Assembly: GCA_965203175.1 (NCBI GenBank) | Contig: OZ241867.1 | Location: forward strand, 1,248,001-1,312,000 | Direction: 5' to 3' | Length of the DNA: 64,000 nucleotides | DNA from: Candidatus Latescibacterota bacterium | Lineage (GTDB): Bacteria > Latescibacterota > UBA2968 > UBA8231 | Shown here: piece after piece, positions 3,414 to 50,283 of the stretch | How positions within the stretch are numbered: position 1 is the first letter of the stretch | Layout of the letters: the number at the start of each line of letters is the position of its first letter | The notes under the pieces: generated by a model | Database searches by the model: none | Seen by the model: only the letters and a program-made list of their open reading frames with translations | What the model was told of the DNA's origin: nothing | Translations under genes and position numbers: made by a program

Positions 3414-4283
3414 ATGAGCGTTTTAATCGACGAAAACACCAAGGTCTTCGTACAGGCAATTACGGGGTCGGAGGGATCATTTCACACTCGCCAAATGCTG
3501 GAGTACGGCACGAAAGTGGTCGGAGGGGCAACACCTGGCAAAGGCGGCCAAGAATTTGAGGGCATCCCGGTGTTTAATACGGTCGCCGAAGGCGTTGAGG
3601 CCACAGGAGCCTATGCATCAATCATCTTTGTGCCAGCCCCCTTTGCCGCTGACGCCATCATGGAAGCGGCCGATGTCGGTATAGACCTGGTCATCTGCAT
3701 CACCGAGAATATCCCCGTGAGCGATATGGTCAAAGCCTACCATTACGTCCAAGCGCGCTCTACTCGGCTGATCGGGCCTAATTGCCCGGGCATTATCTCG
3801 CCGGGGAAGTGCAAAATCGGCATTATGCCCGGTTTTATCCACCAGCCCGGCCGAGTGGGCATTATCTCGCGCAGTGGAACGTTGACCTATGAAGCCGTGG
3901 GGCAGCTTACGGAGCGGGGCCTAGGCCAGTCCACAGCCATCGGCATTGGCGGCGATCCAATCATCGGTACGCGCTTTGTGGACGCGCTGGCTCTCTTTAA
4001 GGACGACCCCGAGACCGATGCGGTCGTAATGATCGGCGAAATCGGGGGCACGGCTGAAGAAGAAGCGGCCGCCTATATCAAAGAACGCTACGACAAGCCC
4101 GTCATTGGCTTTATCGCGGGGCGCACGGCACCTCCAGGGCGGCGGATGGGACATGCAGGAGCTATTATTTCAGGTGGTAAGGGAACCGCCGAGGACAAGA
4201 TGGCGGCGATGCGGGAAGCGGGGATTCACATCTGTGAGAGTCCTGCGGAAATTGGGGAAACGGTGGAGAAGGCGCTGAGCTGA
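3414..4283 (+). CDS. sucD: Succinyl-CoA synthetase alpha subunit
   Basis: [22 protein letters not shown] phospho-His motif. Confidence 0.98.
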
Positions 4284-4317
4284 TTGGGAACGTTTTTCCA
4301 ACAATTCAATAATCGGG

Positions 4318-5133
4318 CTAAGAGAAATCCCTCTTAACCAGCAGCGGCATAATGGCGGGTTGGCGGCTGAGAAGCAGGAGGCCGGCAAGTAGGATTAGGC
4401 TGGCGAGGAGGGCCAAGGGCATGGGGAGATGTTGGGAGGGGCCTATGCCATTTATGCCTAGATGAGTGTGCAGGTTGACTCCAGTTATCGAAGCCAAGTT
4501 GTTGACCGCGTGGGCGAGCATGGCAGGATAGATGCTGTGAGTCCAGTAAACCAAAGCGCCGAGGAAGAGTCCAAAGAGGAAGAGGGGGATTAGTTGCCAA
4601 GGGTTGAAGTGCGAGATGGCGAAGAGCAGGGCCGAGCCGCCTAGCGCCCAACGCGGCCCATAATGGGCGTAAAGACTCGTGAACACAAGTCCGCGGAAGA
4701 GCGGCTCTTCGCAGAATGTAGGGACTAGCACTAGTGTTACCAGTCCCCTCGGGACCTCCGCCAGTCCGCGGATAATCTGAACCTCCAGTAGGTTTTTCTG
4801 AAAGGACAGTGGCATAGATAAGTCTATCCGGTCGAACAACTGGGCCAGATACAAATCGAATTCGGCGACTACGAGGCTACAGCAAACAGTCACCGGGATT
4901 GTCAGCAACAGAGTCGCAGCTGGCGTGGCATTGAACAGAAGCAGGTCTTCGGCGATTAGGCGATGACGGCGGATATAAAGGGCCACAAACCACAGCAGGG
5001 TACATTCGGCAGCAATAATACCAGCATGTAGGGATAAAAGCCCGACGATGGGCCAAACTACGAAGTGAGCCAGCAGGAGAGTAGGTAGAGTTACGCGGAG
5101 AATCTGGGAAAATTGGGGGTAGTGAGCATGCAT
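4318..5133 (-). CDS. CPBP (CAAX/Rce1-like) intramembrane metalloprotease
   Basis: EEPLFRG, FAISH, HAVNN motifs; multiple TM segments; ATG at 5133 avoids overlap with the upstream gene. Confidence 0.85.
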   Translation of the reverse strand: MHAHYPQFSQILRVTLPTLLLAHFVVWPIVGLLSLHAGIIAAECTLLWFVALYIRRHRLIAEDLLLFNATPAATLLLTIPVTVCCSLVVAEFDLYLAQLFDRIDLSMPLSFQKNLLEVQIIRGLAEVPRGLVTLVLVPTFCEEPLFRGLVFTSLYAHYGPRWALGGSALLFAISHFNPWQLIPLFLFGLFLGALVYWTHSIYPAMLAHAVNNLASITGVNLHTHLGINGIGPSQHLPMPLALLASLILLAGLLLLSRQPAIMPLLVKRDFS

Positions 5134-5164
5134 AGGGCTATTTAGAGAGTCTGCTAGGTAGTTG

Positions 5165-6106
5165 TTAAGACGCCTTTGAATGGGCAATCGCCTGTAGATA
5201 ACCCCGAGTGCGGCTGGACCAGAACAAATAACTAAAAAACAGCCCCGGGACATAGGTTTTCACAAGCCAGCGGGTCAACCAGCGAATTGGATAGTGGATC
5301 AGCGGCAACAGGGCTAGCTGGAGCGCGAGCCGCCGAGGAGAAAACGCCGAGGCCCTGATAAAGTCCAATCGAAGTACGGCGTCAAGTTCGGGATGCTTAT
5401 TTAAAAGGATGGGGATTGACTTGTTGCCGTAGGTTTGCATCAGACGGCAAAGTGGCTCCAATGAACGCAAGTGATAGTGATAGGACAGGGCTTCAGGGGC
5501 ATAATAAAGCGGAATACCCGCCAAATGGAGGCGATACCCCAATTCTAGGTCTTCGCCGCCATAAGCAGTGAGATCCTCGTCGAAAAAACCCACGCGGAGC
5601 AGGCTCGATCGGCGAACTGAGGAGTTACCGGTGACGAAGCAGTTGAAAGGTATGGGCTTATCCTCGTCGACCCTGTGGACCCCCCTCCCTTCGATATAGC
5701 GGGTCAGGGAGGTGTTGGGAATTTCACTGGCGAAGCGGACGTTGCCAACAAAAACGGCTTCCTCGTGGTTTTGATGCCGTTGGACATGGGCGCGGAGAAA
5801 ATTGGAGCCGACGATCATGTCGCTGTCGAGAAAGATGACGATCTCGCCGCTGGCGACCCGCAGTGCTGTGTTGCGGGTCCGAGCGCGGCCCTGGTTCTGT
5901 TCGTTGCGAAGCAGCCGCAATTGCAAAGGCGCAACTGCCGCATGCGACCGCTCGGAGTCCAAGTGGGGAGAAGCATCGTCCACCACGATGATTTGGATTG
6001 CCTCGTGGGGGTAATCTTGCTGAGACAGGCTCTTAAGTGCCGCTTCGAGGCGCTCAGGCTCGTCATAGGTAGGCATTACGACGCTGAGCGTCAGCGGGGC
6101 ACTCAT
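5165..6106 (-). CDS. Glycosyltransferase family 2
   Basis: SVVMPTY, VVDDAS, FLDSD, GGEDLELGYRL. Confidence 0.92.
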   Translation of the reverse strand: MSAPLTLSVVMPTYDEPERLEAALKSLSQQDYPHEAIQIIVVDDASPHLDSERSHAAVAPLQLRLLRNEQNQGRARTRNTALRVASGEIVIFLDSDMIVGSNFLRAHVQRHQNHEEAVFVGNVRFASEIPNTSLTRYIEGRGVHRVDEDKPIPFNCFVTGNSSVRRSSLLRVGFFDEDLTAYGGEDLELGYRLHLAGIPLYYAPEALSYHYHLRSLEPLCRLMQTYGNKSIPILLNKHPELDAVLRLDFIRASAFSPRRLALQLALLPLIHYPIRWLTRWLVKTYVPGLFFSYLFWSSRTRGYLQAIAHSKAS

Positions 6107-7218
6107 GCTAAGGTTGCGTAAAGCTGGGTGAGTTGGACAGATTCCCGTTCCCAGTTATAGTATTGTGCCGCCTGCAAACTCGCCTTGGCACACGCCTCTC
6201 GCTGTTCTGCATTGCCCAAAAAAGCGGCGATCTGCTCTCTAATGGCAGCTATATCGGTTGGATCGACCGTAGCTCCGGTACGCGTTTCCCGGATGATGCG
6301 CTGCATTTCAGGAAAGTTGCTGGCTAAGACCGGTAGCCCGGCCATCATATATTCAAAGAGCTTGTTGGGCAGAGAGTAGTAGAAGCTCTTGCCTGTGCCT
6401 TTGATCAGACACAGCCCCAAGTCGGCCGAGCAAGTATAATTGTGAAGTTGGTGAAAGGGCACCCGAGGAATAAAATAGACCCGATCTTCTAGGCCCGCAG
6501 CGCGGACTTGATTCCTCAGGGCCTGTTCGCTAGGGCCGTCCCCAATTAGAACTAGGGCGGCGGTAAGCCCAGCGGCGGCCTCAATTTGCTCGCGCAAACC
6601 GTTTTCGGTGAGGAAACCCCCTTGGTAGAGAACAATAGGGCGGTCATCGGGTAGTTCCAGCGTTTCGCGTATCAGGTTGCTTTGGACCTTATGGCGGAAT
6701 AGCGGCAAATTGCGCAGAACAACAACCTCGTCAAGGCGGTAACGCTCCCTGAGTGATTGGGCGATAGACCCGCTGACGGTTATGACGCGATCTATCCGTC
6801 TTATCAGCCGTCTCTCTAGCAAATGCCAGCAGGACCGCATGAGCGGTCGGTTGACCAGTGAGGATTGTTCGGTCCAAAATTCGTGCGCGTCATAGACGAT
6901 AGGCCGATCTAGTCGCTGTGCAGCCCGCACTGCTGGCCAGAGCGAGTCTAGATCGTGGGCGTGATAGGCGTCTGGATGGATATCGACTAGCAGTGGATAG
7001 GCTCGCTGCCAAAACAAAGGATAGAGGCGGCGTAGCGAGCGGCTTCGGTCTAGCTGGATCGGATGTATTTCAAAATCGTCCCATCCCTTGAGCGGGGCTG
7101 GATTGAACGAGGAAGCGACGATGACGACTTGGTGACCTGCACGGAGCAGCGAAGTGGCCTCTCGGTAGATGCGGTAGTCGAAATTCAGGTCGGTGAAGGC
7201 GACCATACAGATACGCAT
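6103..7218 (-). CDS. Glycosyltransferase family 4 (GT-B)
   Basis: YHAHD, VYDAHE, LPNKLFEYMMAGLPVLAS. Confidence 0.92.
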   Translation of the reverse strand: MRICMVAFTDLNFDYRIYREATSLLRAGHQVVIVASSFNPAPLKGWDDFEIHPIQLDRSRSLRRLYPLFWQRAYPLLVDIHPDAYHAHDLDSLWPAVRAAQRLDRPIVYDAHEFWTEQSSLVNRPLMRSCWHLLERRLIRRIDRVITVSGSIAQSLRERYRLDEVVVLRNLPLFRHKVQSNLIRETLELPDDRPIVLYQGGFLTENGLREQIEAAAGLTAALVLIGDGPSEQALRNQVRAAGLEDRVYFIPRVPFHQLHNYTCSADLGLCLIKGTGKSFYYSLPNKLFEYMMAGLPVLASNFPEMQRIIRETRTGATVDPTDIAAIREQIAAFLGNAEQREACAKASLQAAQYYNWERESVQLTQLYATLA

Positions 7219-7233
7219 GGCGTATATACAAGG

Positions 7234-7278
7234 AAAAAGAATAAAATAAAAAGCAGCCCATCTAAAAATGGGCTGCTT
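7234..7278 (-). terminator. Intrinsic terminator downstream of the putative ncRNA
   Basis: Perfect 11-bp stem AAGCAGCCCAT/ATGGGCTGCTT (7251-7278) followed on the minus strand by TTTATTTTATTCTTTTT. Confidence 0.8.
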
Positions 7279-7288
7279 ATAAAATTAA

Positions 7289-7445
7289 AGAGTATGGCGG
7301 CCAGATGGTGTGATCTTGAAACGCAAGTGAGATCCTCAAACGAGGCGGTGTGGGGAGGTAGTTTTGAAGATCTCAACGACCCGAAAAGGGAAATCCGAGC
7401 TTCGCGGATCAGGATTTTGGCCACGCTAGCGGACCGCCACACTCT
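7289..7445 (-). ncRNA. Putative structured ncRNA or leader RNA of unknown class
   Basis: 14-bp closing stem and 13-bp internal stem; three mismatches on + become G-U pairs on the minus strand; flanked by a promoter and a terminator. Confidence 0.65.
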
Positions 7446-7456
7446 ATTTAGAAACA

Positions 7457-7485
7457 AAAATACACACGCTAGATTGTGTTGTCAA
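7457..7485 (-). promoter_or_regulatory. sigma70-type promoter driving the putative ncRNA, with an operator-like site in the spacer
   Basis: Minus strand TTGACA (7485-7480), 17 bp, TATTTT (7462-7457); CACAC-N6-TTGTG at 7463-7478. Confidence 0.7.
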
Positions 7486-7522: not shown

Positions 7523-7551
7523 TTGCACACTTACAAGTGTGTGCGTATATT
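7523..7551 (+). promoter_or_regulatory. sigma70-type promoter of the XRE gene with a palindromic operator
   Basis: TTGCAC, 17 bp, TATATT; palindrome CACACTT-AC-AAGTGTG at 7526-7541. Confidence 0.65.
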
Positions 7552-8721: not shown

Positions 8722-9417
8722 TCAGCGCTTGGCTTTATTAACGAGTAATTCGATGGCGTCGCGCAGCCGGGCAGCTTCTTCGTATTCTTCGCAGATAACG
8801 GCCTGCTGTAGCTGATGCTGAAGCAGGCTGAGCTCGTCTTTTTCTTCTTTGGGGGGCCGTTGAGCTTCGGCCTCTTCGGCGTTCCGCTTCGGTGGACGGA
8901 TGTTCGCCGTATCTGTATCTATATTGAGCGATCTAGAAATCTGCGCCTCAAACTCGTAGAAGCGGTTCAATGTGTGTTCGAGATCCAAGTCGGTTTCCAA
9001 AGGCTCCAAGCCCACCTCATCGAGCAACGCATGAGAAGCGTAGATAGGCGAATCAGTACGCAAGGCCAAAGCGATGGCGTCGCTGGGACGTGCGTCGATG
9101 TCTTTTATTGTGTGATTCTTCTCAATGACGACCCTCGCGTAGTAGATTGAGTGGTGCACGTTGTGAATGACAACGTGACGCACATTTATCGCAAGGTTGT
9201 TGACCATAGAAGAGAGCAAGTCGTAGGAAATCGGGCGTATGGGCCCATCGTTTTCTAGCCGCATCCGAATGGCGGCGGCCTCAAATTCGCCAATGGGAAT
9301 GGGCAAGAGCCGTGGCAGTTCTCCCTCCTTCTCGCTCAACCATACCAAGGGTCTATCCTCGCGCAAATAGGGACTCACCTTGACCACGGTCATCTCGACT
9401 AAAGAGGTGTTACTCAT
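8722..9417 (-). CDS. Bifunctional nuclease (DUF151) with C-terminal UVR (UvrB/C) motif
   Basis: LPIPIGEFEAAAI, RPISYDL, DARPSDAIALALR; EEYEEAARLRDAI. Confidence 0.88.
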   Translation of the reverse strand: MSNTSLVEMTVVKVSPYLREDRPLVWLSEKEGELPRLLPIPIGEFEAAAIRMRLENDGPIRPISYDLLSSMVNNLAINVRHVVIHNVHHSIYYARVVIEKNHTIKDIDARPSDAIALALRTDSPIYASHALLDEVGLEPLETDLDLEHTLNRFYEFEAQISRSLNIDTDTANIRPPKRNAEEAEAQRPPKEEKDELSLLQHQLQQAVICEEYEEAARLRDAIELLVNKAKR

Positions 9418-10034
9418 TAATCATCCTCGTTGAGACGACTAATCTCGTCGCGAAGCCTCGCCGCCTCCTCGTATATTTCTTCGGCGACAGCTTGGCGCAT
9501 GCGTCTTTTTAGTTGTTCTAGCTGATTGACGGCTGGTGGGGAAATGATGGGATGGTCACCCTGCGATGCGGCCACAGGTTTGGCGAGGGCTTCAACGTCG
9601 GCCTTAACCCATTCGTCATCGTTAGAGCGAACGCAGCCTTCCTCTTTGAGGATTTTGATGGCGGCGTAGATCGGCGCGCGAAAGCGCAAGGCTAGGGCAA
9701 TTGCATCGCTGGGGCGTGCATCGAGAGTATGGGTCTTACCCTCATCGTCAACGAGGAGAATCTCGGCATAGTACGTTCTCTCGCGTAAGTTAAAGTCAGT
9801 GATTTCGACCCGGACTACCCGGGCATCGACATTGGCGAGAATCTGATGAGCTAGGTCATAACTGATGGGACGCGCGGGTCGCCGCTTGCTGTGGGCCATA
9901 GAAATGGCAGCCGCCTCAAAGCGGCCGATGACAATGTGCAGATAATAGTTGCCCTCGACTTCTTTGAGTACTACTTCAGGGTATAAAGATTGAGATTTGC
10001 TGCTTAAGACCTCCTTAACTTCCATCAGAACCAT
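9417..10034 (-). CDS. Bifunctional nuclease (DUF151) with C-terminal UVR motif, second paralog
   Basis: IGRFEAAAI, RPISYDL, DARPSDAIALALR; EIYEEAARLRDEI. Confidence 0.88.
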   Translation of the reverse strand: MVLMEVKEVLSSKSQSLYPEVVLKEVEGNYYLHIVIGRFEAAAISMAHSKRRPARPISYDLAHQILANVDARVVRVEITDFNLRERTYYAEILLVDDEGKTHTLDARPSDAIALALRFRAPIYAAIKILKEEGCVRSNDDEWVKADVEALAKPVAASQGDHPIISPPAVNQLEQLKRRMRQAVAEEIYEEAARLRDEISRLNEDD

Positions 10035-25828: not shown

Positions 25829-25903
25829 AGCCCGGTCGTTCAATTGGTAGGACAACGGATTTTGGTTCCGTTTATCGAGGTTCGAGTCCTCGCCGGGCTG
25901 CCA
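25829..25903 (+). tRNA. tRNA-Gln(TTG)
   Basis: Cloverleaf: acceptor AGCCCGG/CCGGGCT, anticodon arm ACGGA-TTTTGGT-TCCGT, T arm CGAGG-TTCGAGT-CCTCG, encoded CCA; usual position after ispE. Confidence 0.95.
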
Positions 25904-32224: not shown

Positions 32225-32323
32225 GGGAGCGGATGCGTGCCTGGTGGCTGTCGCGGACTTCAAATCCGTTGCGGCGTAGCGAGAGTTGCGCTGGGTGGGT
32301 TCGATTCCCACACGTTCCCGCCA
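32225..32323 (+). tRNA. selC: tRNA-Sec (TCA)
   Basis: GCGGA-CTTCAAA-TCCGT anticodon arm, TGGT D loop, 9-bp extra arm with GAGA loop, GTGGG-TTCGATT-CCCAC T arm, GCCA end. Confidence 0.93.
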
Positions 32324-32360
32324 GATTTTAAATACCTGTAAAGATAGCGAGAGACAAGCG

Positions 32361-34994
32361 ATGAAATGGACTTTGGCAGCGGTGGCGTTGTTGATGGTGG
32401 CACTGGCGTGGGCTCAGGACGCGGCGGTGGCGCTAAGTGCGCCCGAGACAATTCCGAGGGACCGTCCGAGCGAGAACATCGCGCTCGGGGCGAGCTATAC
32501 GCTGGAGCCGGGGCCGAACTACGGGCTTTGCACCGACTCCGGTGACGCCGAGCAACTGACGGATGGGGTGTACACGGACGGCTATTTCTGGGCACAGCTA
32601 TCGACCGTGGGCTGGCAGGAAAAGACGCCCTCGATCTTTACGCTGGACCTGGGCAAGGTGATGCCGATACGGGGAGTATCCTTCAACACGGCGGCGGGGT
32701 TCGCGGACGTGAGATGGCCCCTGACGATCCGCATCCTCGTGGCGGGTGAGGACGAGGAATTCCACGAGATCGGGGACCTGGTGGAGTTGAGCGCCCAACA
32801 ACACGGCCCACTCGTGCCGGAGAGGGCGAGCGATGTCATGTCGGTGAGCTTCAACGAGGCGGAGATACATCATCATTACGACGCCAACCGGGATCGCTAC
32901 CCGCAGAAGCTCACCCCCGAATTACGTGAGCAGATCCTCCGTGATCTCCATGAAGCGGTCGCCACCCAATACGGGACGTATCGGTACTGGACGGACCGGT
33001 TGCGGGCGCACGGACGCTATGTCAGCCTGGTGGTGTGGAACGAGCCCTACACGTTCGTGGACGAGATCGAGGTCTACGCGGGAGAGCCGGAGTGGGTGAA
33101 CGAGCCTCTTCCGGGGCCCGCCATCGCCGACGTGAAGGCGTACGCGGGCCGGCTCGCCATTCAGAAAGGGATCCGGACGCGCCTGATGCGTGACATCGAG
33201 TCCCTGAGAAAGGCGGCGGAAGAGAAGGGTATCCCGCCGCAGACGCGGAATGATGTGCTGGCCGAACTGGCGGCCGTGGAAGGGGAGATGGGGCCGGCCA
33301 CGGCCTTCAGGGATGACTTCCAGGCCGTGCTGCCTCTGAATCCCTGGCATGAGAGGGTGCTTCGTACACAGGCGTGGCTGTGGCGCGCCAGGGGCCTGGA
33401 GCCGCTCGTGTTCTGGCGCTCGAACCTGTGGGATCCAGTTCCCCTCATCGGCATGCCGGACACGTCGGCGGAACCGGCCGTCGAAGTGCACCTGATGAGG
33501 AAGGAACATCGCGCCGCGGCGTTCAATGTGAGCAACAGCAGTGACCAACCGATGGAGGTGGCCTTCCGCCTGAGCGGGCTTCCCGGGGGCGACAATCCGG
33601 AGTACGTGACCGTTCGCGAGGTGGCCTGGACCGACACCCGGAGGGGAGTGGCGGTGGCCGCGGCCCTGCCTGAGGTTGCCGCGGATGAGGAAGGTCTGTA
33701 CACGGTCTCCGTACCTTCGGGCATGACGCGTCAGGTTTGGCTGACCTTCCATCCGGTGGACGTGCAGCCGGGCACGCACGAAGGCGAGGTCGTCGTGGAG
33801 TCCGTGCAGGGGGGCAAGCGGTTTCCGCTGCGCATGCACCTGTATCCCCTGGATTTTCCGGAAGAGCAGTCGCTGCACCTGGGCGGATGGGACTACACGG
33901 ACCGGATCAGTCACTTTCGCTTGGTGACCGAGCAGAACCGGCCGGCGATCATCGAGCACCTGCGCGAACATCTCGTCGACTCGCCGTGGGCCCTCAAGCT
34001 GGCGCTGCCGCGGGGCACCCACGATGCGCAAGGGGCGATGACGGTGCCGCCCTCCGCCGACTACTTCGATGCCTGGATCGACCTGTGGCCGGATGCAGCC
34101 CAGTACCTCGTCTTCGCGAAAGTGGGCCGACACTTCGAATCGTTGCCCATGGGCACGCCGGAGTTCAACACGGCGGTGAAGGCATGGATCACGTTCTGGG
34201 CGCAGCACATGGTGGCCAAGGGATTGCAGCCGGAACAGTTCGGGCTGCTCTTGGTGGATGAGCCGGACGAGCCGTGGCAGGACGAGCGCATCCTGGCGTG
34301 GGCGAAGCCCATCCGCGAAGCGGAGACAGGAGTCCGCATCTGGGAGGATACGACCCACCGGGACATGGACCGGGCGAATCAGGCGATGATCGATGCGTGC
34401 CACGTCCTGTGCCCGAACTACGTGTCCTTCCTGACGCAGGGCCAGGAGTACCGCGACTACTACCTGAAGAAGCGGGATCAGGGGATCGGGTTGGAGTTCT
34501 ACGCGGCGTGGACGAGCCGCGTCTTCGATCCCTACGCCGGCCGCCTCATGGCGTGGACGAGCTGGCGCTATGGGGCGTCGGCGATCTACATGTGGTCCCT
34601 GACCGACACGGGCGGAGCGTCGTCGTGGAACGAGTATCTCACCTACAAGGATGCGTACTCGCCGATTTTTATCGCCGAGGACTCGGTGACGGCTGGCAAA
34701 CACCTCGAGGCGGCGCGGGAAGGCGTGCAGGACTACGAGTACTTCGCCATGTTGGACCGGGCGATCCGGAAGGCGTCTGCCCAGGGGAGGAAGGGCTCGG
34801 AAGTGGAGGAGGCCCGACGGTTGCTGGAGAGCCTACCCGCGCGTGTCTGTGATGCGGCGGGCCACGGTGGTGAGATCGACACCAGCCAGCCTCTGAGTGG
34901 TTTTCACTGGTTCAACGAGAAAGTGGACCGCACCCTGGCGGACGAGGCACGGATTCAAGTGTTGGCAGCGTTGACGGAGCTGGCCGAGCACTGA
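32361..34994 (+). CDS. Exported discoidin-like plus DUF4091/GH123-like putative glycoside hydrolase, paralog 1 (no C-terminal sorting domain)
   Basis: Signal peptide from ATG 32361; NIALGASY/LTDG/LDLG/DEIEVY discoidin motifs; LVDEP and REGVQDYEYF. Confidence 0.7.
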   Translation: MKWTLAAVALLMVALAWAQDAAVALSAPETIPRDRPSENIALGASYTLEPGPNYGLCTDSGDAEQLTDGVYTDGYFWAQLSTVGWQEKTPSIFTLDLGKVMPIRGVSFNTAAGFADVRWPLTIRILVAGEDEEFHEIGDLVELSAQQHGPLVPERASDVMSVSFNEAEIHHHYDANRDRYPQKLTPELREQILRDLHEAVATQYGTYRYWTDRLRAHGRYVSLVVWNEPYTFVDEIEVYAGEPEWVNEPLPGPAIADVKAYAGRLAIQKGIRTRLMRDIESLRKAAEEKGIPPQTRNDVLAELAAVEGEMGPATAFRDDFQAVLPLNPWHERVLRTQAWLWRARGLEPLVFWRSNLWDPVPLIGMPDTSAEPAVEVHLMRKEHRAAAFNVSNSSDQPMEVAFRLSGLPGGDNPEYVTVREVAWTDTRRGVAVAAALPEVAADEEGLYTVSVPSGMTRQVWLTFHPVDVQPGTHEGEVVVESVQGGKRFPLRMHLYPLDFPEEQSLHLGGWDYTDRISHFRLVTEQNRPAIIEHLREHLVDSPWALKLALPRGTHDAQGAMTVPPSADYFDAWIDLWPDAAQYLVFAKVGRHFESLPMGTPEFNTAVKAWITFWAQHMVAKGLQPEQFGLLLVDEPDEPWQDERILAWAKPIREAETGVRIWEDTTHRDMDRANQAMIDACHVLCPNYVSFLTQGQEYRDYYLKKRDQGIGLEFYAAWTSRVFDPYAGRLMAWTSWRYGASAIYMWSLTDTGGASSWNEYLTYKDAYSPIFIAEDSVTAGKHLEAAREGVQDYEYFAMLDRAIRKASAQGRKGSEVEEARRLLESLPARVCDAAGHGGEIDTSQPLSGFHWFNEKVDRTLADEARIQVLAALTELAEH

Positions 34995-35041
34995 GTCAGG
35001 CGTTTCGTCTTGGTGCGCAGCCCTCGAAGGAGGGTCACGGG

Positions 35042-37771
35042 ATGAGATGGACACTGGCGGTAGCGTCGTTGATGGGGGCACTGGCGTGGGCCCAAGACGC
35101 GGAGGCGGGTCCGGCGGACCGTCCGGACGAGAACATTGCGTTGGCGGCGAGCTACACGATGGACCCGGCACCGAACTATGAACACTGCACGGACGACGAC
35201 GATGTCAAGCAACTGACAGACGGGGTGTACTATCGAGGGGAGGAGAGTTTCTGGACGCAACTGTCGACCGTGGGCTGGCAGGATAAGAATTCCGTGATCG
35301 TGACGCTAGACCTGGGTGCGGTGCAGCCTATACGGGGTGTCTCGTTCAATACGGCGGCGGGTCGTGCGGACGTGAGGTGGCCGCTGGCGATCCGGATCTT
35401 CACGGCCGGTGAAGACAGGCAATTCCACGAGATCGGGGATCTGGTGGGACTGAGCGCGGAACACGGCTGGCCCGTTGCGACGGGGTACGGGACGCACTGG
35501 TACTGGACGGATCGGTTGAGGACGCACGGCCGCTATGTCAGCCTGATTGTGTGGAACGAGCCGTTCATCTTCGTTGACGAGATTGAGGTCTATGCCGGCG
35601 AGCCGGAGTGGGTCGATGAGCCACTGCCCGGGCCGGCCATTGCGGATCTGAAGGCGTACGCGGGCCAGATCGGCATCCAGGCGGGGATTCGGACGCGTCT
35701 TGTGCGGGACATTCAGGCGCTGAGGAGGGCGGCGGAAGAAGAAGGTGTCCCGGTCGAGACGCGGGGCGACGTGCTGGGCGAGCTGGCGTCTGTGGAAGGG
35801 GAGTTGGGACAGGCCGGCACAGCGTTCGGGGATGATTTCCAGGCCGTGCTGCCGTTGAATCCGTGGCACGAACGGGTGTTGCGCACACAGGCGTGGCTCT
35901 GGCGCGCCAGAGGTCTGGAGTCGCTCACCTTCTGGCGTTCGAATCTGTGGGACCTACTGCCGCTCATCGGCACGCCGGACACGGCGGCGGCATTGGCCGT
36001 CGAGGTGCACCTGATGCGGCGGGAATACCGCGCCGCGGCGTTTAATGTGAGCAATAGCAGCGATGAGCCGATGGAGGTAGCGTTCCGCCTGAGCGGGCTG
36101 CCCGGCGGTGACAATCCGGAGTATGTGACGGTGCATGAGGTGGCCTGGACGGACACCCGGAGGGGAGTGCCAGTGGCCGCGGCCCTGCCGGAGGTTGTTG
36201 TCGAGAACGATCTGTATGCGGTGACCGTGCCGTCGGGCATGACGCGGCAGGTGTGGCTGACCTTCCATCCGGTGGATGTGGAGCCGGGCGTGTATGAGGG
36301 CGAGGTCGTCGTGGAGTCCGTGTCCGGGGGCAGGAAATTTCCGTTGCGCATGCACCTGTATCCCTTGGATTTCCCGGAGAAGCAGTCGCTGCACTTGGGC
36401 GGCTGGGACTATACGGATCAGGTGGGGCATCACCGCCTAGTGACAGAGCAGAACCGGTTGGCGCTCATTGAGCACCTGCGCGAACATTACGTCGACTCGC
36501 CGTGGGGCCTACCCTGGGCGCTACCTCGGGGCACGCACGATGCGCAGGGGGCGATGACGGCACCACCCAACACCGACCACTTCGATGCCTGGATCGAGTT
36601 GTGGCCGGACGCGGCTCAGTACCTGGTGTTCGCCAAAGTGGGGACGCAGTTCGAGTCGTGGCCCATGGGCACGCCGGAATTCACAACCGCGGTCAAGGCG
36701 TGGGTGACCTTCTGGGCGGCGTACGTGGAGGCGCAGGGGTTGCAGCCGGAACAACTGGCGCTGCTGCTGGTGGATGAGCCTCGCGAGCCGCGGCATGACG
36801 AGGTTATTCTGGCGTGGGCCAGGGCTATCCGCGAAGCGAACACAGGCGTCCGCATCTGGGAGAATCCGAACCACCGGGACATGGACCAAGCGAATCAGGC
36901 GATGATTGACGCGTGCCACGTGTTGTCCCCGCACCGTCAGATCTTCCTGAACGAGGGCCAGGGCTATCGCGACTACTACGTGCAGAAGCGGGATCAGGGG
37001 ATCGGATTGGAGTTCTATTCGGCGTGGACGACTCGACTTTTCGATCCGTACACGGCCCGGCTTACAGCGTGGACGAGTTGGCGCTATGGGGCCACGGCGA
37101 TGCACTTCTGGTCGATGGGCGACACGGGCGGCGCGTCATCGTGGAACGAGTATCTGGCCTCGAGGGATTCGTACGCGCCCTTGTTTATCGCTGAGGACTC
37201 GGTGACGGCCGGCAAACACCTTGAGGCAGTGCGGGAAGGCGTGCAGGACTACGAGTACTTCGCGATGCTGGACCGGGCGATCCGGGAGGCGGCGCAGGGG
37301 AGTCCGGCGGTGGAAGAGGCGCGTGGGTTGCTGGAGCGTCTGCCGGCCAGTGTCCTGGAAGCGGCGGGCCAGGAGACCCATTGGCTGAGCGAGAGCGACC
37401 GCACGCTGGCGGACGAGGCCCGGGTTCGCGTGTTGGCGGCGTTGACGGCGCTGACGACGCCGACTGCTGTGGCGCAGCCGGTCGCCGTGCCCTATGAGTT
37501 CCGGCTGGACCAAAACTATCCCAATCCCTTCAACCCCAACACCACGATCGAGTTTTCGGTCCCTATGCGGGGCGATGTCGAACTGACGATCTACAATCTC
37601 GCTGGCCAGGAAGCCCGGAGATTGCTGCGCACGGTCCTGGCTGCCGGAAATCACTCGGTCACCTGGGACGGCCGGGACCAGCGCGGACGTGAACTGGCCA
37701 ATGGCGTGTATATCTACAGGCTGCAGGCGGGGGAGCAGGTCGATACGCGCAAACTACTGCTGCTGAAATAG
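35042..37771 (+). CDS. Discoidin-like plus DUF4091/GH123-like protein, paralog 2, with FlgD-Ig/T9SS type-A-like C-terminal domain
   Basis: Long near-identical blocks shared with paralog 1; tail LDQNYPNPFNPNTTIEF...IYNLAGQ...WDGRD...GVYIYRL. Confidence 0.75.
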   Translation: MRWTLAVASLMGALAWAQDAEAGPADRPDENIALAASYTMDPAPNYEHCTDDDDVKQLTDGVYYRGEESFWTQLSTVGWQDKNSVIVTLDLGAVQPIRGVSFNTAAGRADVRWPLAIRIFTAGEDRQFHEIGDLVGLSAEHGWPVATGYGTHWYWTDRLRTHGRYVSLIVWNEPFIFVDEIEVYAGEPEWVDEPLPGPAIADLKAYAGQIGIQAGIRTRLVRDIQALRRAAEEEGVPVETRGDVLGELASVEGELGQAGTAFGDDFQAVLPLNPWHERVLRTQAWLWRARGLESLTFWRSNLWDLLPLIGTPDTAAALAVEVHLMRREYRAAAFNVSNSSDEPMEVAFRLSGLPGGDNPEYVTVHEVAWTDTRRGVPVAAALPEVVVENDLYAVTVPSGMTRQVWLTFHPVDVEPGVYEGEVVVESVSGGRKFPLRMHLYPLDFPEKQSLHLGGWDYTDQVGHHRLVTEQNRLALIEHLREHYVDSPWGLPWALPRGTHDAQGAMTAPPNTDHFDAWIELWPDAAQYLVFAKVGTQFESWPMGTPEFTTAVKAWVTFWAAYVEAQGLQPEQLALLLVDEPREPRHDEVILAWARAIREANTGVRIWENPNHRDMDQANQAMIDACHVLSPHRQIFLNEGQGYRDYYVQKRDQGIGLEFYSAWTTRLFDPYTARLTAWTSWRYGATAMHFWSMGDTGGASSWNEYLASRDSYAPLFIAEDSVTAGKHLEAVREGVQDYEYFAMLDRAIREAAQGSPAVEEARGLLERLPASVLEAAGQETHWLSESDRTLADEARVRVLAALTALTTPTAVAQPVAVPYEFRLDQNYPNPFNPNTTIEFSVPMRGDVELTIYNLAGQEARRLLRTVLAAGNHSVTWDGRDQRGRELANGVYIYRLQAGEQVDTRKLLLLK

Positions 37772-46240: not shown

Positions 46241-46974
46241 AATGAACTAGTAAATGAAAATATCGGAAGCAACGAGAAGAGACATTTTTGATTCGATCGT
46301 AATTGAGAATGTGCCATGGAACGGACGACTTGAGGAGCCGGATTTCTTGGCTCGATTATTCGATCTTAAATCTCTTCCCTCAACTGATGATAGATTTAGG
46401 GATGCTTATGGCGATATTTGGCAGCACCGAATAAATAACTACGACTGGGACGACGACTGGGTCTTTTCTGATACTCGTTTTAATTTGCTACATGGCGACG
46501 ACGAAATATTTTTGCGATTTTTATGTGAAACCCTACATCCAGTCGTGAGAACTGACGCAGAGGAGATCGAGAGACTCCGGCGAGGATATAACCTCTTATT
46601 ACAAAATGATGGCTACGAGATAGTTGCAAAGGCAAAAATGGCAGGCCGCGCTATTTATGTAGCTCGACAAATCGGGTTGAGGCCAGAGATACCTCTAAAT
46701 TCACTAAAAGAAAAATTTCGGGTACTGACACTAGTTATGTTCTCCAGCAGATCACACGGATGGAAGCTGCAGTAGAAAATGATCCTGGTCTGGCAATAGG
46801 AACAGCGAAAGAACTAGTTGAAACCGTGTGTAAAACAATTTTGAAAGAAAGAAATATCAAACTTACTGGAAATGAGAACCTACCAAAACTTGTGAAGGCG
46901 ACGGCGAAAGAGTTAAAACTGACGCCATCTGATATAGCAGATGATGCTGAGCGGCCCCCAAAGCTTGGATCACT

Positions 46975-47838
46975 TTAGATGTGAGTTGGCCGGGTCTCGG
47001 CGGGCTGATAGTTTAGGGCTTGGGCAAATTCATCGGGTGTTTTATATCCGAGGCTACTATGGGGTCGTTGCTGGTTGTACAGGCACCGATAGTCCTCCAC
47101 GACGACGCGGGCTTCGGCGATCGAAAAGAAGATTTCTGGCGTAAGACACTCGGCTCGAAAACGGCTATGAAAACTTTCGATGAGGCCATTTTGCCACGGG
47201 CTACCCGGCTCGATATACAGCGTCTGGATGTCGGCGGCAGCGCACCAATCCTGAATGAGTCGGGCGATAAATTCCGAGCCATTATCCGAGCGCATAAACG
47301 CCGGTGCGCCCCACGCTTCGACCAGCGCTTGAAGCGTATCCAACACGTGGTCACTGGGGATCGAACGCGCCGGGTGAATGACCAAACACTGCCGGGTATA
47401 TTCATCTACGACCGTCAGCATCTTCACCGGCCGACCGTCGGTGGTTCGATCCAAAATGAAATCCCATGACCAGACATGGCCGGGATAGGCCGCCTGCACC
47501 GGAGTGCGCCGCGCCGACCGGGGGCACCGTTTCCGGCGCTCCACCGGTGGTACGCCTAACCCGGCTTGCCGCCGCACCCGCTGGACGCGTTTGCGATTGA
47601 CCGTCCAACCCTCGCGGCATAAGAGCTGATGAATAAGCCGATAGCCCCAGCGCGGATGCTGTTTCGACAAGGTGATAATGCGCTGCTCCAGCCGCTGCCG
47701 CCGGTCGGTGGGGCCTTGCGGCCGATGATAATAACTCGAGGGCGCCAGCCCGACCACAAGGCAGGCCCGCCGCGTCGAGCACATCCCCTGTTCGGCGACA
47801 TAGTGGACGGCTCGTTTTTTATGCGACGGGCTTACCAT
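46975..47838 (-). CDS. IS3 transposase OrfB (DDE integrase core)
   Basis: WSWDF, VVDEYTR, RSDNGSEF, PGSPWQNGLIESF, YNQQRPHSSLGY; A7 slippery run at 47838-47844 for an OrfA-OrfB frameshift. Confidence 0.93.
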   Translation of the reverse strand: MVSPSHKKRAVHYVAEQGMCSTRRACLVVGLAPSSYYHRPQGPTDRRQRLEQRIITLSKQHPRWGYRLIHQLLCREGWTVNRKRVQRVRRQAGLGVPPVERRKRCPRSARRTPVQAAYPGHVWSWDFILDRTTDGRPVKMLTVVDEYTRQCLVIHPARSIPSDHVLDTLQALVEAWGAPAFMRSDNGSEFIARLIQDWCAAADIQTLYIEPGSPWQNGLIESFHSRFRAECLTPEIFFSIAEARVVVEDYRCLYNQQRPHSSLGYKTPDEFAQALNYQPAETRPTHI

Positions 47839-48107
47839 TTTTTTGCGTTGATCGCTTGCAACACCCGATTATCCAGCATCGCTTCGGCCAGCATCTTTTT
47901 CAACTCGGCGTTTTCTTTTTCTAACGCTTTCAAGCGCTTGGCATCGGCTACATCCATACCGCCGTATTGCTTTTTCCAGCGATAGAAGGTGCCTTCGGCG
48001 ATGTTATGCACGCGACAGAGTTCGGCCACCGTTTGGCCGCCATCCGCCTGCCGCAAAATGCGGATAATTTGCTCGACAGTACGAGATTTGCTCCCTTTGC
48101 GCTTCAT
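47832..48107 (-). CDS. IS3 transposase OrfA (HTH)
   Basis: EQIIRIL...ELCR...TFYRWKKQYGGM...LKALEKEN.ELKK. Confidence 0.93.
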   Translation of the reverse strand: MKRKGSKSRTVEQIIRILRQADGGQTVAELCRVHNIAEGTFYRWKKQYGGMDVADAKRLKALEKENAELKKMLAEAMLDNRVLQAINAKKW

Positions 48108-48384
48108 GAGTATGCTCCTCGTTAAGAAACAAGAAAATACTCACATCCAAACCTGTCCAGGTTTAAGGGGGCAGGCCAATGCTAAAGCATCTGACAGCAT
48201 AAAGCGGTTGTTGAGTAATCTGGCAACCATTACAGATGGGGTGGCAGAATTGAGAAATAGCTATGGGACTGGTCACGGCAAAGAAGCAAAATCGAGGGGC
48301 CTTACTTCGAGACATGCGAAACTGGCGGTTGGGTCTGCATCAACATTAGCGATTTTCCTAGTCGAAACTCATAATGAACAAAGC

Positions 48385-48445
48385 GTATAACAAGCGCACG
48401 CAACGGACTGGCCAGCCGGCCAGCCGCTGATGCGAGGCGTTAGAG
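48385..48445 (+). other. attC site 1
   Basis: GTATAAC ... central IR CTGGCC/GGCCAG ... GCTGATG ... GTTAGAG. Confidence 0.8.
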
Positions 48446-48459
48446 CGCGAGAGAAGCCG

Positions 48460-49098
48460 ATGGGATACACGAGACAACTTTGGGACAAACGTGTAGCCGG
48501 CAGGTCCGATCTCTCATCGCAAGTGATACACCTCACCCGCCCGACGGAATTCGACGGGAAGAAGGTTGGTCCGGTGGACCTGCTGGTCTGTATTCTTACG
48601 GAGGCCCGACTTAGCGCTTCCACCACAGACAAGGGCTTCATCTGCGGAGATATTCCTGCTACCTGCTTTCAAGATGTGCCCGTGTATTCATTATCGCAAA
48701 ACATCCACGCTGAAGAGCAGTATCGGGCGGCGGTTGAGGGGGCAAAAGTACGCTATGTCGGAGTTGGTCTCATGTTTCCTAAGCCGTATGTATACGCTCG
48801 GGGCGGTCGGCCTGTGATCTATGAAGACACAGACAAAGCGAAGGCCATTCTGCCAGAAGATGGATGGTGGCGAATCGTTCGCTTTGATCTAAGCGACGAA
48901 GAGAACTTCGCGGACTGGACGCACGAACGAGAGTGGCGTGTCCCGGGTGGTTTTCCCTTCGACCGCGACCAAGCGACGGTTTTACTTCCCAACAAGTACG
49001 GATACGACCGCTTTCTTAGGCTATGCGAAGAAGTTGAGGAGGTTGACATCCTGAAGGAAATTCGGGGAATCGTCAATTTGGGTGCGGTGTTCTACTAG
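48460..49098 (+). CDS. Cassette 2: AbiGi/DUF2971-like protein (possible ADP-ribosyltransferase fold)
   Basis: RSDLS..VIHLT, CFQDVP, RY.GVG, GGRPVIY, DWTHEREWR; ATG 48460 lies after attC1. Confidence 0.65.
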   Translation: MGYTRQLWDKRVAGRSDLSSQVIHLTRPTEFDGKKVGPVDLLVCILTEARLSASTTDKGFICGDIPATCFQDVPVYSLSQNIHAEEQYRAAVEGAKVRYVGVGLMFPKPYVYARGGRPVIYEDTDKAKAILPEDGWWRIVRFDLSDEENFADWTHEREWRVPGGFPFDRDQATVLLPNKYGYDRFLRLCEEVEEVDILKEIRGIVNLGAVFY

Positions 49099-49102
49099 CC
49101 CG

Positions 49103-49162
49103 CTCTAACAATCGGTTCAAGCGGACGCCGCAAAGCGGCACCGCTTAACCACAACGTTAGCA
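49103..49162 (+). other. attC site 2
   Basis: CTCTAAC-N5-GTTCAAGC...GCTTAAC-N6-GTTAGCA; CGCTCTAAC exactly complements the cassette start GTTAGAGCG. Confidence 0.92.
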
Positions 49163-49165
49163 CTC

Positions 49166-49624
49166 ATGACTGACCTCTCGCACCTAGAATCCACACTTGT
49201 CGGAGTCGCTGGCGAATACTTTGTTGCTGCGGAACTGTCGCTCCGCGGGTATCTTGCGTCGGTCACACTTCGAAATAGCCGAGGTATCGACATCATTGCA
49301 AGTAGTGCAGATGCGTCCAAGTCGGTATCTATTCAAGTCAAAACAAGCAAGGGCAAGACTCCGAGTTGGATCCTGAGCAAGAAATCCGAAGATTTTTTCT
49401 CTGACTCTCACTTCTACGTGTTTGTCTTACTCAAATCCCTTGGAACCCGGCCAGATTTCTTCATTGCCCCAAGCATTGCTGTCGCGAAGTATATCTGCAC
49501 CACGCACAGGGAATGGCTGAAAGGGTCAAAACGTGATGGAACCCAACGCCAGGATTCGAACATGAGAAAATTTAACGACCCCGAAGGTCAACATCGCGAG
49601 CGTTGGGACGTTCTGGGGCTATGA
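49166..49624 (+). CDS. Cassette 3: small PD-(D/E)xK nuclease
   Basis: GVAGEYFVAAELS, GIDII, IQVKT motif spacing. Confidence 0.75.
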   Translation: MTDLSHLESTLVGVAGEYFVAAELSLRGYLASVTLRNSRGIDIIASSADASKSVSIQVKTSKGKTPSWILSKKSEDFFSDSHFYVFVLLKSLGTRPDFFIAPSIAVAKYICTTHREWLKGSKRDGTQRQDSNMRKFNDPEGQHRERWDVLGL

Positions 49625-49625
49625 G

Positions 49626-49697
49626 TGCTAACCAGTCGCTCCAGCCGACGGCCAACCCGCTATGCGGCTTGTCCGCGGCTGAGCTTGTCCGTTAGGC
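49626..49697 (+). other. attC site 3
   Basis: TGCTAAC-N5-GCTCCAGC...GCTGAGC-N6-GTTAGGC; ATGAGTGCTAAC complements the cassette start GTTAGCACTCAT over 12 of 12 bases. Confidence 0.92.
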
Positions 49698-49716
49698 GTC
49701 ATCACGGCAACCACAC

Positions 49717-50283
49717 ATGACAGAGAAAGAATGGACTGAAAGAATGGCTCACTGTCTTCAGGATGCGTTGAGCGAGACTCCATATAAGACGTGCCTAATA
49801 GAGGTTGGGAGAAAAATTCCATATGGGTTTGAAATTCGATCATATGAGAACGATGATCCGAAGCCAAACGTTAATCAGTACGAAACAGATCTGGTCATTC
49901 TCGATTGTGAAAGCGAGCAATCTTGGAAGCCTCGTGTCATTGTTGAAGCAAAAAAAAGGAACGTTACAACTCATGATGCGATCACTTATTCTCAGAAGGC
50001 ACTATCACACAAGACTGTACACCCCTATCTCCGCTATGGAATCATGCTTGGAGATAGGAAACATCATCCGTTACCAGGGAGACTCTACCGACATGGCGCG
50101 CACTTTGACTTCATGATTTCCTTCGTAGGGAGTAGACCAAACAAAGCAGAGATAGATACATTTGGGGAGATCATACGTGCCGAAATAGATGCTTCTCGGA
50201 AATTGGAGAAGATCATCTATGAGAGTCGTCAGCGTGACCGGGATCATTACACGATTTTGCATAAGAAGTTACGTCTAGAATGA
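49717..50283 (+). CDS. Cassette 4: hypothetical protein with PD-(D/E)xK-like motif
   Basis: TEKEW (E helix), YETDLVI, VIVEAK, then a Y..K motif. Confidence 0.65.
   Translation: MTEKEWTERMAHCLQDALSETPYKTCLIEVGRKIPYGFEIRSYENDDPKPNVNQYETDLVILDCESEQSWKPRVIVEAKKRNVTTHDAITYSQKALSHKTVHPYLRYGIMLGDRKHHPLPGRLYRHGAHFDFMISFVGSRPNKAEIDTFGEIIRAEIDASRKLEKIIYESRQRDRDHYTILHKKLRLE

Follow-up and report, generated by a model that had tools for sequence, protein, structure and literature searches.

The window (the whole 64-kb stretch of DNA analyzed here) contains a 373-nt intergenic gap between a GT4 glycosyltransferase gene on the minus strand and a divergent XRE-family regulator gene on the plus strand. Within this gap lies a structured RNA on the minus strand, together with a predicted promoter, a terminator, and two predicted operators (Table 1). 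That the locus is a non-coding structured RNA gene we regard as almost certain. The transcript would extend from about 7450 to 7245, giving an RNA of about 205 nt, and no second copy was found within the 64-kb window. An earlier note on this DNA had recognized the RNA and the GT4-GT2-CPBP cluster downstream, both of which were seen, but had missed the divergent XRE gene, the operators, and a second C-rich loop.

Table 1. Features of the RNA locus and its flanking genes, in window positions.
Feature	Positions	Strand	Remarks
GT4 glycosyltransferase	6103..7218	-	context; first gene of the downstream GT4-GT2-CPBP cluster
Intrinsic terminator	7243..7278	-	hairpin and U tail; stem-loop 7278-7251 followed by the U tract
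Closing stem P1, 3' arm	7289..7302	-	
Structured RNA core, 155 nt	7290..7444	-	closing stem, then an irregular rod that ends in a three-way junction bearing two hairpins
Hairpin P6	7328..7375	-	seed candidate 2; 13-bp covarying stem 7375-7363 / 7340-7328, 22-nt loop 7362-7341
Hairpin P5, C-rich loop	7379..7400	-	seed candidate 1; unpaired probability 0.99 in the window
Closing stem P1, 5' arm	7432..7445	-	GUGUGG invariant
Promoter of the RNA, sigma70 type, TTGACA-17-TATTTT	7457..7485	-	predicted from sequence; -35 at 7485-7480, 17-nt spacer, -10 at 7462-7457
Operator O2 (predicted)	7462..7479	.	palindrome RYACAC-N6-GTGTRY; fills the spacer of the RNA promoter
Predicted XRE promoter, TTGCAC-17-TATATT	7523..7551	+	same position in L001-L023 and L035
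Operator O1 (predicted)	7525..7542	.	palindrome RYACAC-N6-GTGTRY; overlaps the predicted XRE promoter
XRE-family HTH regulator, 177 aa	7592..8125	+	Pfam HTH_3; predicted repressor of itself and of the RNA

Several other features of the window were recorded. The GT4 leader (7219-7250) is pyrimidine-rich and has neither a Shine-Dalgarno sequence nor an evident promoter, as in most homologues. Beyond the XRE gene, two tandem genes, each with a bifunctional-nuclease domain and a UvrB/C motif (8722-10034), are kept near XRE in about 40 loci. The window also encodes tRNA-Sec plus one other tRNA (32225-32319 and 25829-25900), and directly after tRNA-Sec lies a tandem pair of genes (32286-37771), each encoding about 900 aa, that look like paralogues and are alike at their N-termini. 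A cluster of short ORFs unlike its surroundings (46254-50283) is possibly a small island; one of its ORFs (46975-47838) looks like that of an IS3-family transposase.

The secondary structure was examined on the minus strand. The promoter, the 14-bp closing stem, and the 13-bp stem with its loop were all present as the earlier note had them, and its three G-U pairs could be read directly off the sequence, two in the closing stem and one in the 13-bp stem. The terminator and its U tract were likewise found, though with a stem of 12 pairs by scan rather than 11. The predicted fold of 7234-7485 is stable (z = -6.16), as is that of the core alone (z = -3.88), with 0 of 200 shuffles as stable in either case. 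It starts with closing stem P1, continues through a middle helix of irregular shape (P2-P3) and the short helix P4, and ends in a three-way junction that bears hairpins P5 and P6. The P5 loop reads UUUCCCUU in the window and UUCCCCUU in more distant homologues; the nearly invariant P6 loop carries CUCCCCAC at 7357-7350, with an unpaired probability of 0.97 in the window. Two small hairpins proposed earlier (AUCCG/CGGAU and CCC/GGG) did not hold up: across 37 homologues, double changes occurred in one pair versus 1.6 in shuffled alignments, and one pair was broken in 18 of the 37. We rejected both, and their bases belong instead to the three-way junction and the second hairpin, P5.

To place the locus among its relatives, we used the XRE protein, for which 115 relatives were found. 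Alignment of 85 of these 115 led to 64 loci retrieved from GTDB genomes, of which 60 were orthologue-level matches; L061-L064, short HTH-only matches from other taxa, were dropped. The records of the 60 loci are labelled mostly Latescibacterota, with some labelled Gemmatimonadota or Handelsmanbacteria. An RNA core was found upstream and divergent of XRE in 42 of the 60 (41 whole, plus L027, truncated at the edge of its contig), in loci whose XRE identity ranged between 91% and 36%. Conservation in relatives, on which the earlier note had made its reading depend, is present in these 42 loci. Core length ranges from 152 to 172 nt, and the core was better conserved than XRE coding DNA in all 14 pairs compared (0.81 versus 0.62 in the case of L028). 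One tight clade holds 25 of the 42 full copies (24 loci and the window), and the cassette persists in two unrelated gene neighbourhoods. Neither this RNA nor the second form described below was found near XRE in eight of the 60 loci.

Individual loci differ in detail. L046, L050, L051, and L053 are XRE orthologues with no operator or RNA upstream, the flank of L046 being only 257 nt. L058 (5690-5840) has an XRE orthologue and at least three operator sites, with no C-rich RNA within 650 nt and an intergenic region of about 1 kb. L044 has two operators upstream of XRE and, on the opposite (plus) strand at about 5740-5800, a C-rich tract with UCCCCUUU just past an AAA ATPase gene. L002 and L004 carry an 11-nt tandem duplication in the 3' arm of P1 (5687-5710).

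The fold was then assessed across homologues in an alignment (A2) of 37 of the 43 copies, which leaves out L002 and L004 (duplicated arm), the near-duplicates L006, L011, and L014, and the truncated L027. The 48-pair structure has 94.6% of its cells paired, versus 38-44% when it is slid along the alignment. Double changes were seen in 18 pairs versus 7.2 in shuffled alignments (reached in 0 of 500), statistics that ignore relatedness. G-U cells numbered 230 versus nine A-C cells, and this excess fixes the minus strand as the RNA strand. Support is weaker in P2-P3, with P3 73.5% paired. In P6, eight of the 13 stem pairs show double changes; in both P5 and P6 the stems vary, whereas the loops are nearly invariant and predicted to be unpaired. 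Overall, these data support a predicted fold in which a rod ends in a three-way junction with two C-rich-loop hairpins.

The signals for transcription are also conserved. TTGAC[AG] lies upstream of the core in all 42 full copies, followed exactly 17 nt on by TAnnnT in 41 of the 42. The distance from the -10 box to the core is 10-13 nt in the window's clade and 4 nt in L033, versus 45-116 nt in the other 16, a spacing that points either to processing that would remove a leader or to an additional promoter. The leader of 45-116 nt, often accompanied by a third operator, was noted in L024-L032, L034, L036, L037, L039, L045, L049, L054, and L059, and is absent from the window's clade. By inspection, a hairpin with a U tail follows the core in 40 of 42 copies, with no clear one in L039 and L045. 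Terminator sequence varies among clades, whereas the core does not.

The XRE protein has an N-terminal HTH domain of the cro/CI type (PF01381, HTH_3; 36.3 bits versus a cut-off of 23). Its structural model (pLDDT 90.6) has an all-helical C-terminal part, and the HTH superposes on P22 c2 with 0.9 A rmsd. The C-terminal part received no fold or family assignment, solved repressors matching the HTH part only. DdrO came up as one of many weak HTH matches and gives no evidence for a role in DNA damage. Both divergent promoters carry an 18-bp palindrome, RYACAC-N6-GTGTRY. Across the loci, there were 170 overlapping matches to it in 19.5 kb of sequence upstream of XRE versus nine in the other 758 kb, and five of these nine belong to a displaced element in L043. 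No further operator was found in the 64-kb window beyond O1 and O2. Two matches per 64 kb are not significant alone, being reached in 18 of 100 shuffles, so the case for the operator rests on position and conservation. A palindrome lying over both divergent promoters is the arrangement known for repressors that control their own gene and also silence a divergent one, and XRE probably represses its own gene and the RNA gene through these sites.

A second form of the RNA (type II, as against the type I form described above) occurs in 10 loci: L038, L040-L043, L047, L048, L052, L055, and L057. These constitute one clade in the XRE tree (support 96/87), from which L054 and L058 were left out as their translations are too short. 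The type II element lies on the minus strand at about 5600-5890 (3872-4129 in L043 and 3245-3500 in L057) and folds differently, into five serial hairpins, a fold for which 17 pairs show double changes versus 9.6 in shuffled alignments (0 of 500). Its neighbours are rsmG-mnmE-yidC in nine loci and yidC-mnmE in L047; downstream there is in most cases a coiled-coil gene that belongs to no known family. In L043, an apparent insertion of about 1.9 kb (4130-6000), transposase-like by eye, lies between XRE on one side and its RNA and operators on the other. Type II escapes detection by model R1. The promoter layout is the same in all 10 type II loci, and type II keeps the operators and both loop motifs, CUCCCCAC and UUCCCCUUU. 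The first hairpin carries the former, without variation, in its loop, on a stem with double changes in nine of 11 pairs; the last hairpin carries the latter, likewise invariant. Both motifs were found in 47 of the 60 regions upstream of XRE versus three of 2,836 background windows. Selection keeps the motifs, and not the scaffold or the downstream gene. With the tree rooted at its midpoint, type I would be the ancestral form, with type II derived from it.

Each of the two forms contains a G-rich strand for which there are two C-rich partners. In short prefixes of the type I RNA, the 5' arm is predicted to pair with the loop-6 seed (probability 0.60-0.86 in 14 of 15), a pairing that is absent from the full RNA. 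In type II, all 10 loci allow the first loop to base-pair with the terminal hairpin's 5' arm (-13.9 to -18.0 kcal/mol, versus -25 to -32 for the hairpin itself). These figures have no shuffled control and concern invariant bases, which cannot show covariation. Such alternative pairing could serve to mask the seed while the RNA is being made, could act as a switch, or could simply result from duplication of the motif.

We also compared the RNA with catalogued families. The Rfam scan that the earlier note had proposed found no known family over the RNA in the window or in 10 related loci. With the covariance models of Rfam 15, there was no relevant match over the window RNA at the gathering threshold or at E up to 5, none in five diverged type I loci (E up to 10), and none in four type II loci and L058; the best matches over the RNA loci were far below gathering, with E above 1. 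Phage and plasmid collections yielded no match either. A conserved small ORF was considered and rejected, as none is shared by the 24 copies of the core examined and core lengths take all residues modulo 3. Our search of the open-access literature, with subscription papers outside its scope, found no regulatory RNA described for Latescibacterota, and the main text of a large motif-discovery paper makes no mention of Latescibacteria (PMC5737381). Collectively, the locus belongs to a real, uncatalogued RNA family with a cognate predicted repressor and operator, most likely of the anti-Shine-Dalgarno sRNA kind.

The mechanism that we favour is that of an XRE-repressed, trans-acting sRNA with two anti-Shine-Dalgarno seeds, and for this mechanism as a whole we hold the chances to be slightly better than even. 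The locus would be a two-gene regulatory cassette of XRE and RNA. XRE would bind the palindrome at both divergent promoters and repress its own gene and the RNA gene until a signal relieved repression, upon which the RNA of about 205 nt would be made and terminated, as its conserved promoter and terminator signals suggest. The paired ends and long rod would protect the RNA, while the three-way junction, in the structure backed by covariation, would hold out two single-stranded C-rich seeds. By analogy with known sRNAs, these seeds could pair with G-rich Shine-Dalgarno regions of mRNAs encoded elsewhere and block translation initiation. The sequence ACCUCC in the loop is indeed complementary to GGAGGU, as first pointed out in the earlier note, and genes in the window use GGAGG-type ribosome binding sites. 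The RNA also shows the feature of this functional class, a conserved unpaired C-rich motif on variable stems. Of the options put forward earlier, a trans-acting sRNA blocking ribosome binding sites fits best, though no target was found within the scope of the search (64 kb of this genome and 12 neighbouring genes). Duplex energies of loop 6 at 272 candidate start regions in the window hardly differed from random (mean -11.4 versus -10.8), and the 12 neighbouring genes, XRE included (as feedback on XRE mRNA), showed no conserved pairing clearly beyond shuffled controls. The sRNA mechanism also leaves the sequence invariance of the closing stem unexplained, and L039 and L045, with no clear terminator, and the eight of 60 XRE loci with neither RNA form nearby count against it.

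The closing stem also figures in two other readings. In one, the RNA would titrate a protein. This may be the XRE repressor itself, or else a factor or nuclease that binds C-rich RNA and whose usual ligand is the anti-Shine-Dalgarno tail of 16S rRNA. Double changes are found in none of the eight P1 pairs 3-10 versus 12 of 24 pairs in P4-P6 (Fisher p = 0.014, uncorrected for relatedness), GUGUGG in P1 matches the operator half-site GTGTGT at five of six positions, and the RNA and XRE remain linked. A-form RNA, however, presents its sequence differently from DNA, which counts against XRE reading P1; type II offers nothing equivalent to P1 apart from the operator as transcribed; and the invariance of P1 may come instead from transient pairing with loop 6. 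A precedent exists in Aca1 and Aca2, HTH proteins described as binding RNA as well as operator DNA (PMC13551039). On balance, we find protein titration doubtful, though it stands ahead of the other alternatives. The second reading is a self-masking RNA in a closed loop with its repressor. Here, the 5' arm would hide the CCACAC seed during synthesis and the seed would be freed when the 3' arm completes P1; P1, which resembles the operator half-site, would bind XRE, and XRE, besides repressing the gene, would be titrated by the RNA or would gate it; type II would have rewired the seed into a terminator/antiterminator switch. We consider this composite unlikely. The same low probability attaches to a cis-acting leader or attenuator of the downstream operon, that is, of GT4-GT2-CPBP here and of the coiled-coil gene in type II. 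In 39 of 42 copies, GT4 starts about 35-95 nt from the core, and the stretch between them shows no evident promoter or Shine-Dalgarno sequence, so read-through may supply GT4, and in type II the pairing of the first loop with the 5' arm of the terminal hairpin, available in 10 of 10 loci, is a possible antiterminator for the coiled-coil gene. In type I, however, no antiterminator exclusive with the terminator was found. Barring the terminator makes the window fold 19.1 kcal/mol less stable without releasing any alternative partner, and the terminator 5' arm has at most one upstream pair in 38 of 42 copies (weak extra hairpins being counted with the terminator in some loci). The terminator also changes among clades while the core stays, GT4 is displaced in three of 42 copies (L034, L054, and L059), and the two types share the loop motifs but not the downstream gene. 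The attenuator option raised in the earlier note is therefore weak for type I.

A divergent 6S-like RNA that binds sigma70-RNA polymerase, also raised there, would account for the size near 200 nt, the paired 5' and 3' ends, and the irregular rod, and the alignment consensus does leave columns 26-53 and 152-176 unpaired, in regions where the alignment is poor. In single folds, by contrast, the middle of the rod is paired with small internal loops only in 16 of 17 cases (the exception being L049), with no large central bubble. The apex is branched into a three-way junction rather than forming a single capped stem, type II is not a rod, and no 6S match was obtained in the window (E up to 5) or in the five diverged loci (E up to 10). 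This option is weak, and we think it very unlikely. XRE proteins often accompany toxin-antitoxin and phage modules, and an antitoxin RNA (type I or III in the toxin-antitoxin sense) or the RNA part of a mobile or defence element was weighed as well. In its favour are weak matches far below cut-off. The conserved neighbours, however, include no conserved toxin, reverse transcriptase, or nuclease partner, no repeats were found, the phage and plasmid collections gave no match, and the locus is syntenic with housekeeping genes, such that we regard this as the most improbable of the readings.

Returning to the anti-Shine-Dalgarno sRNA, the best reading is that the RNA works like AbcR, 6C, or RsaE while being a member of none of these by model score, fold, or regulator. 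AbcR1 and AbcR2 of alpha-rhizobia and Brucella are similar in having two distinct single-stranded anti-Shine-Dalgarno motifs, close to CUCCCCAC and UUCCCCUUU of the present RNA, and in being encoded beside a transcription regulator. They differ in consisting of 114-121 nt of serial hairpins, associated with Hfq and activated by a LysR-type protein, whereas the present RNA has a closed rod with a three-way junction and a predicted XRE/HTH_3 repressor, comes from another phylum, and has no Rfam match. We take Rfam to contain the AbcR family, in which case the lack of a match counts against membership. The AbcR motifs are given as CUCCCA and GUUCCC in one report (PMC5461406) and as CUCCUCCC and UUCCCCUC in another (PMC8844928). 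The 6C RNAs of Actinobacteria are alike in their two C-rich-loop hairpins and partial control by a repressor, reported as LexA (PMC5014011), and their stem-loops are described as binding mRNAs through C-rich loops without a chaperone (PMC6486639). The present RNA differs from them in its long closed rod, its lack of an Rfam match, and its host, which is of Latescibacterota type rather than actinobacterial. By definition, 6C RNAs have a pair of adjacent hairpins whose loops each contain at least six C; in the present RNA, the C run is 3-4 long in loop 6 and mostly 3-4 long in loop 5 (runs reach six in L031 and L033).

RsaE/RoxS, RNAIII, and the cuckoo family likewise present conserved unpaired C-rich loop motifs on variable stems and are reported to block ribosome binding, the motif being UCCC in RsaE (PMC2790875) and CCUCCUCCC in cuckoo (PMC4615179). 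They differ from the present RNA in motifs, architecture, regulator, and taxon, and the likeness is best read as convergence. With 6S RNA, described as having a defining central bubble and single apical stem (PMC8876501), the RNA shares a length of about 200 nt, paired ends, and an irregular helix, but it has no large central bubble in single folds, a branched apex, no Rfam match, and an operator-covered promoter. With Aca1 and Aca2, too, an HTH protein comes with a palindromic operator and a neighbouring structured RNA, although the Aca motifs are reported as 5' UTR elements of phage operons (PMC13551039), whereas the present RNA would be a separate chromosomal gene.

As the family comes with covariation support, a likely repressor, an operator consensus, a promoter, and candidate seeds, the circuit can be rebuilt in a laboratory strain even though the host is uncultured. 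With two motifs kept and the scaffold rebuilt within one orthologous cassette, it also offers a natural test of how anti-Shine-Dalgarno sRNAs evolve. If it is true that the repressor also binds the RNA, this would be a new kind of feedback circuit.
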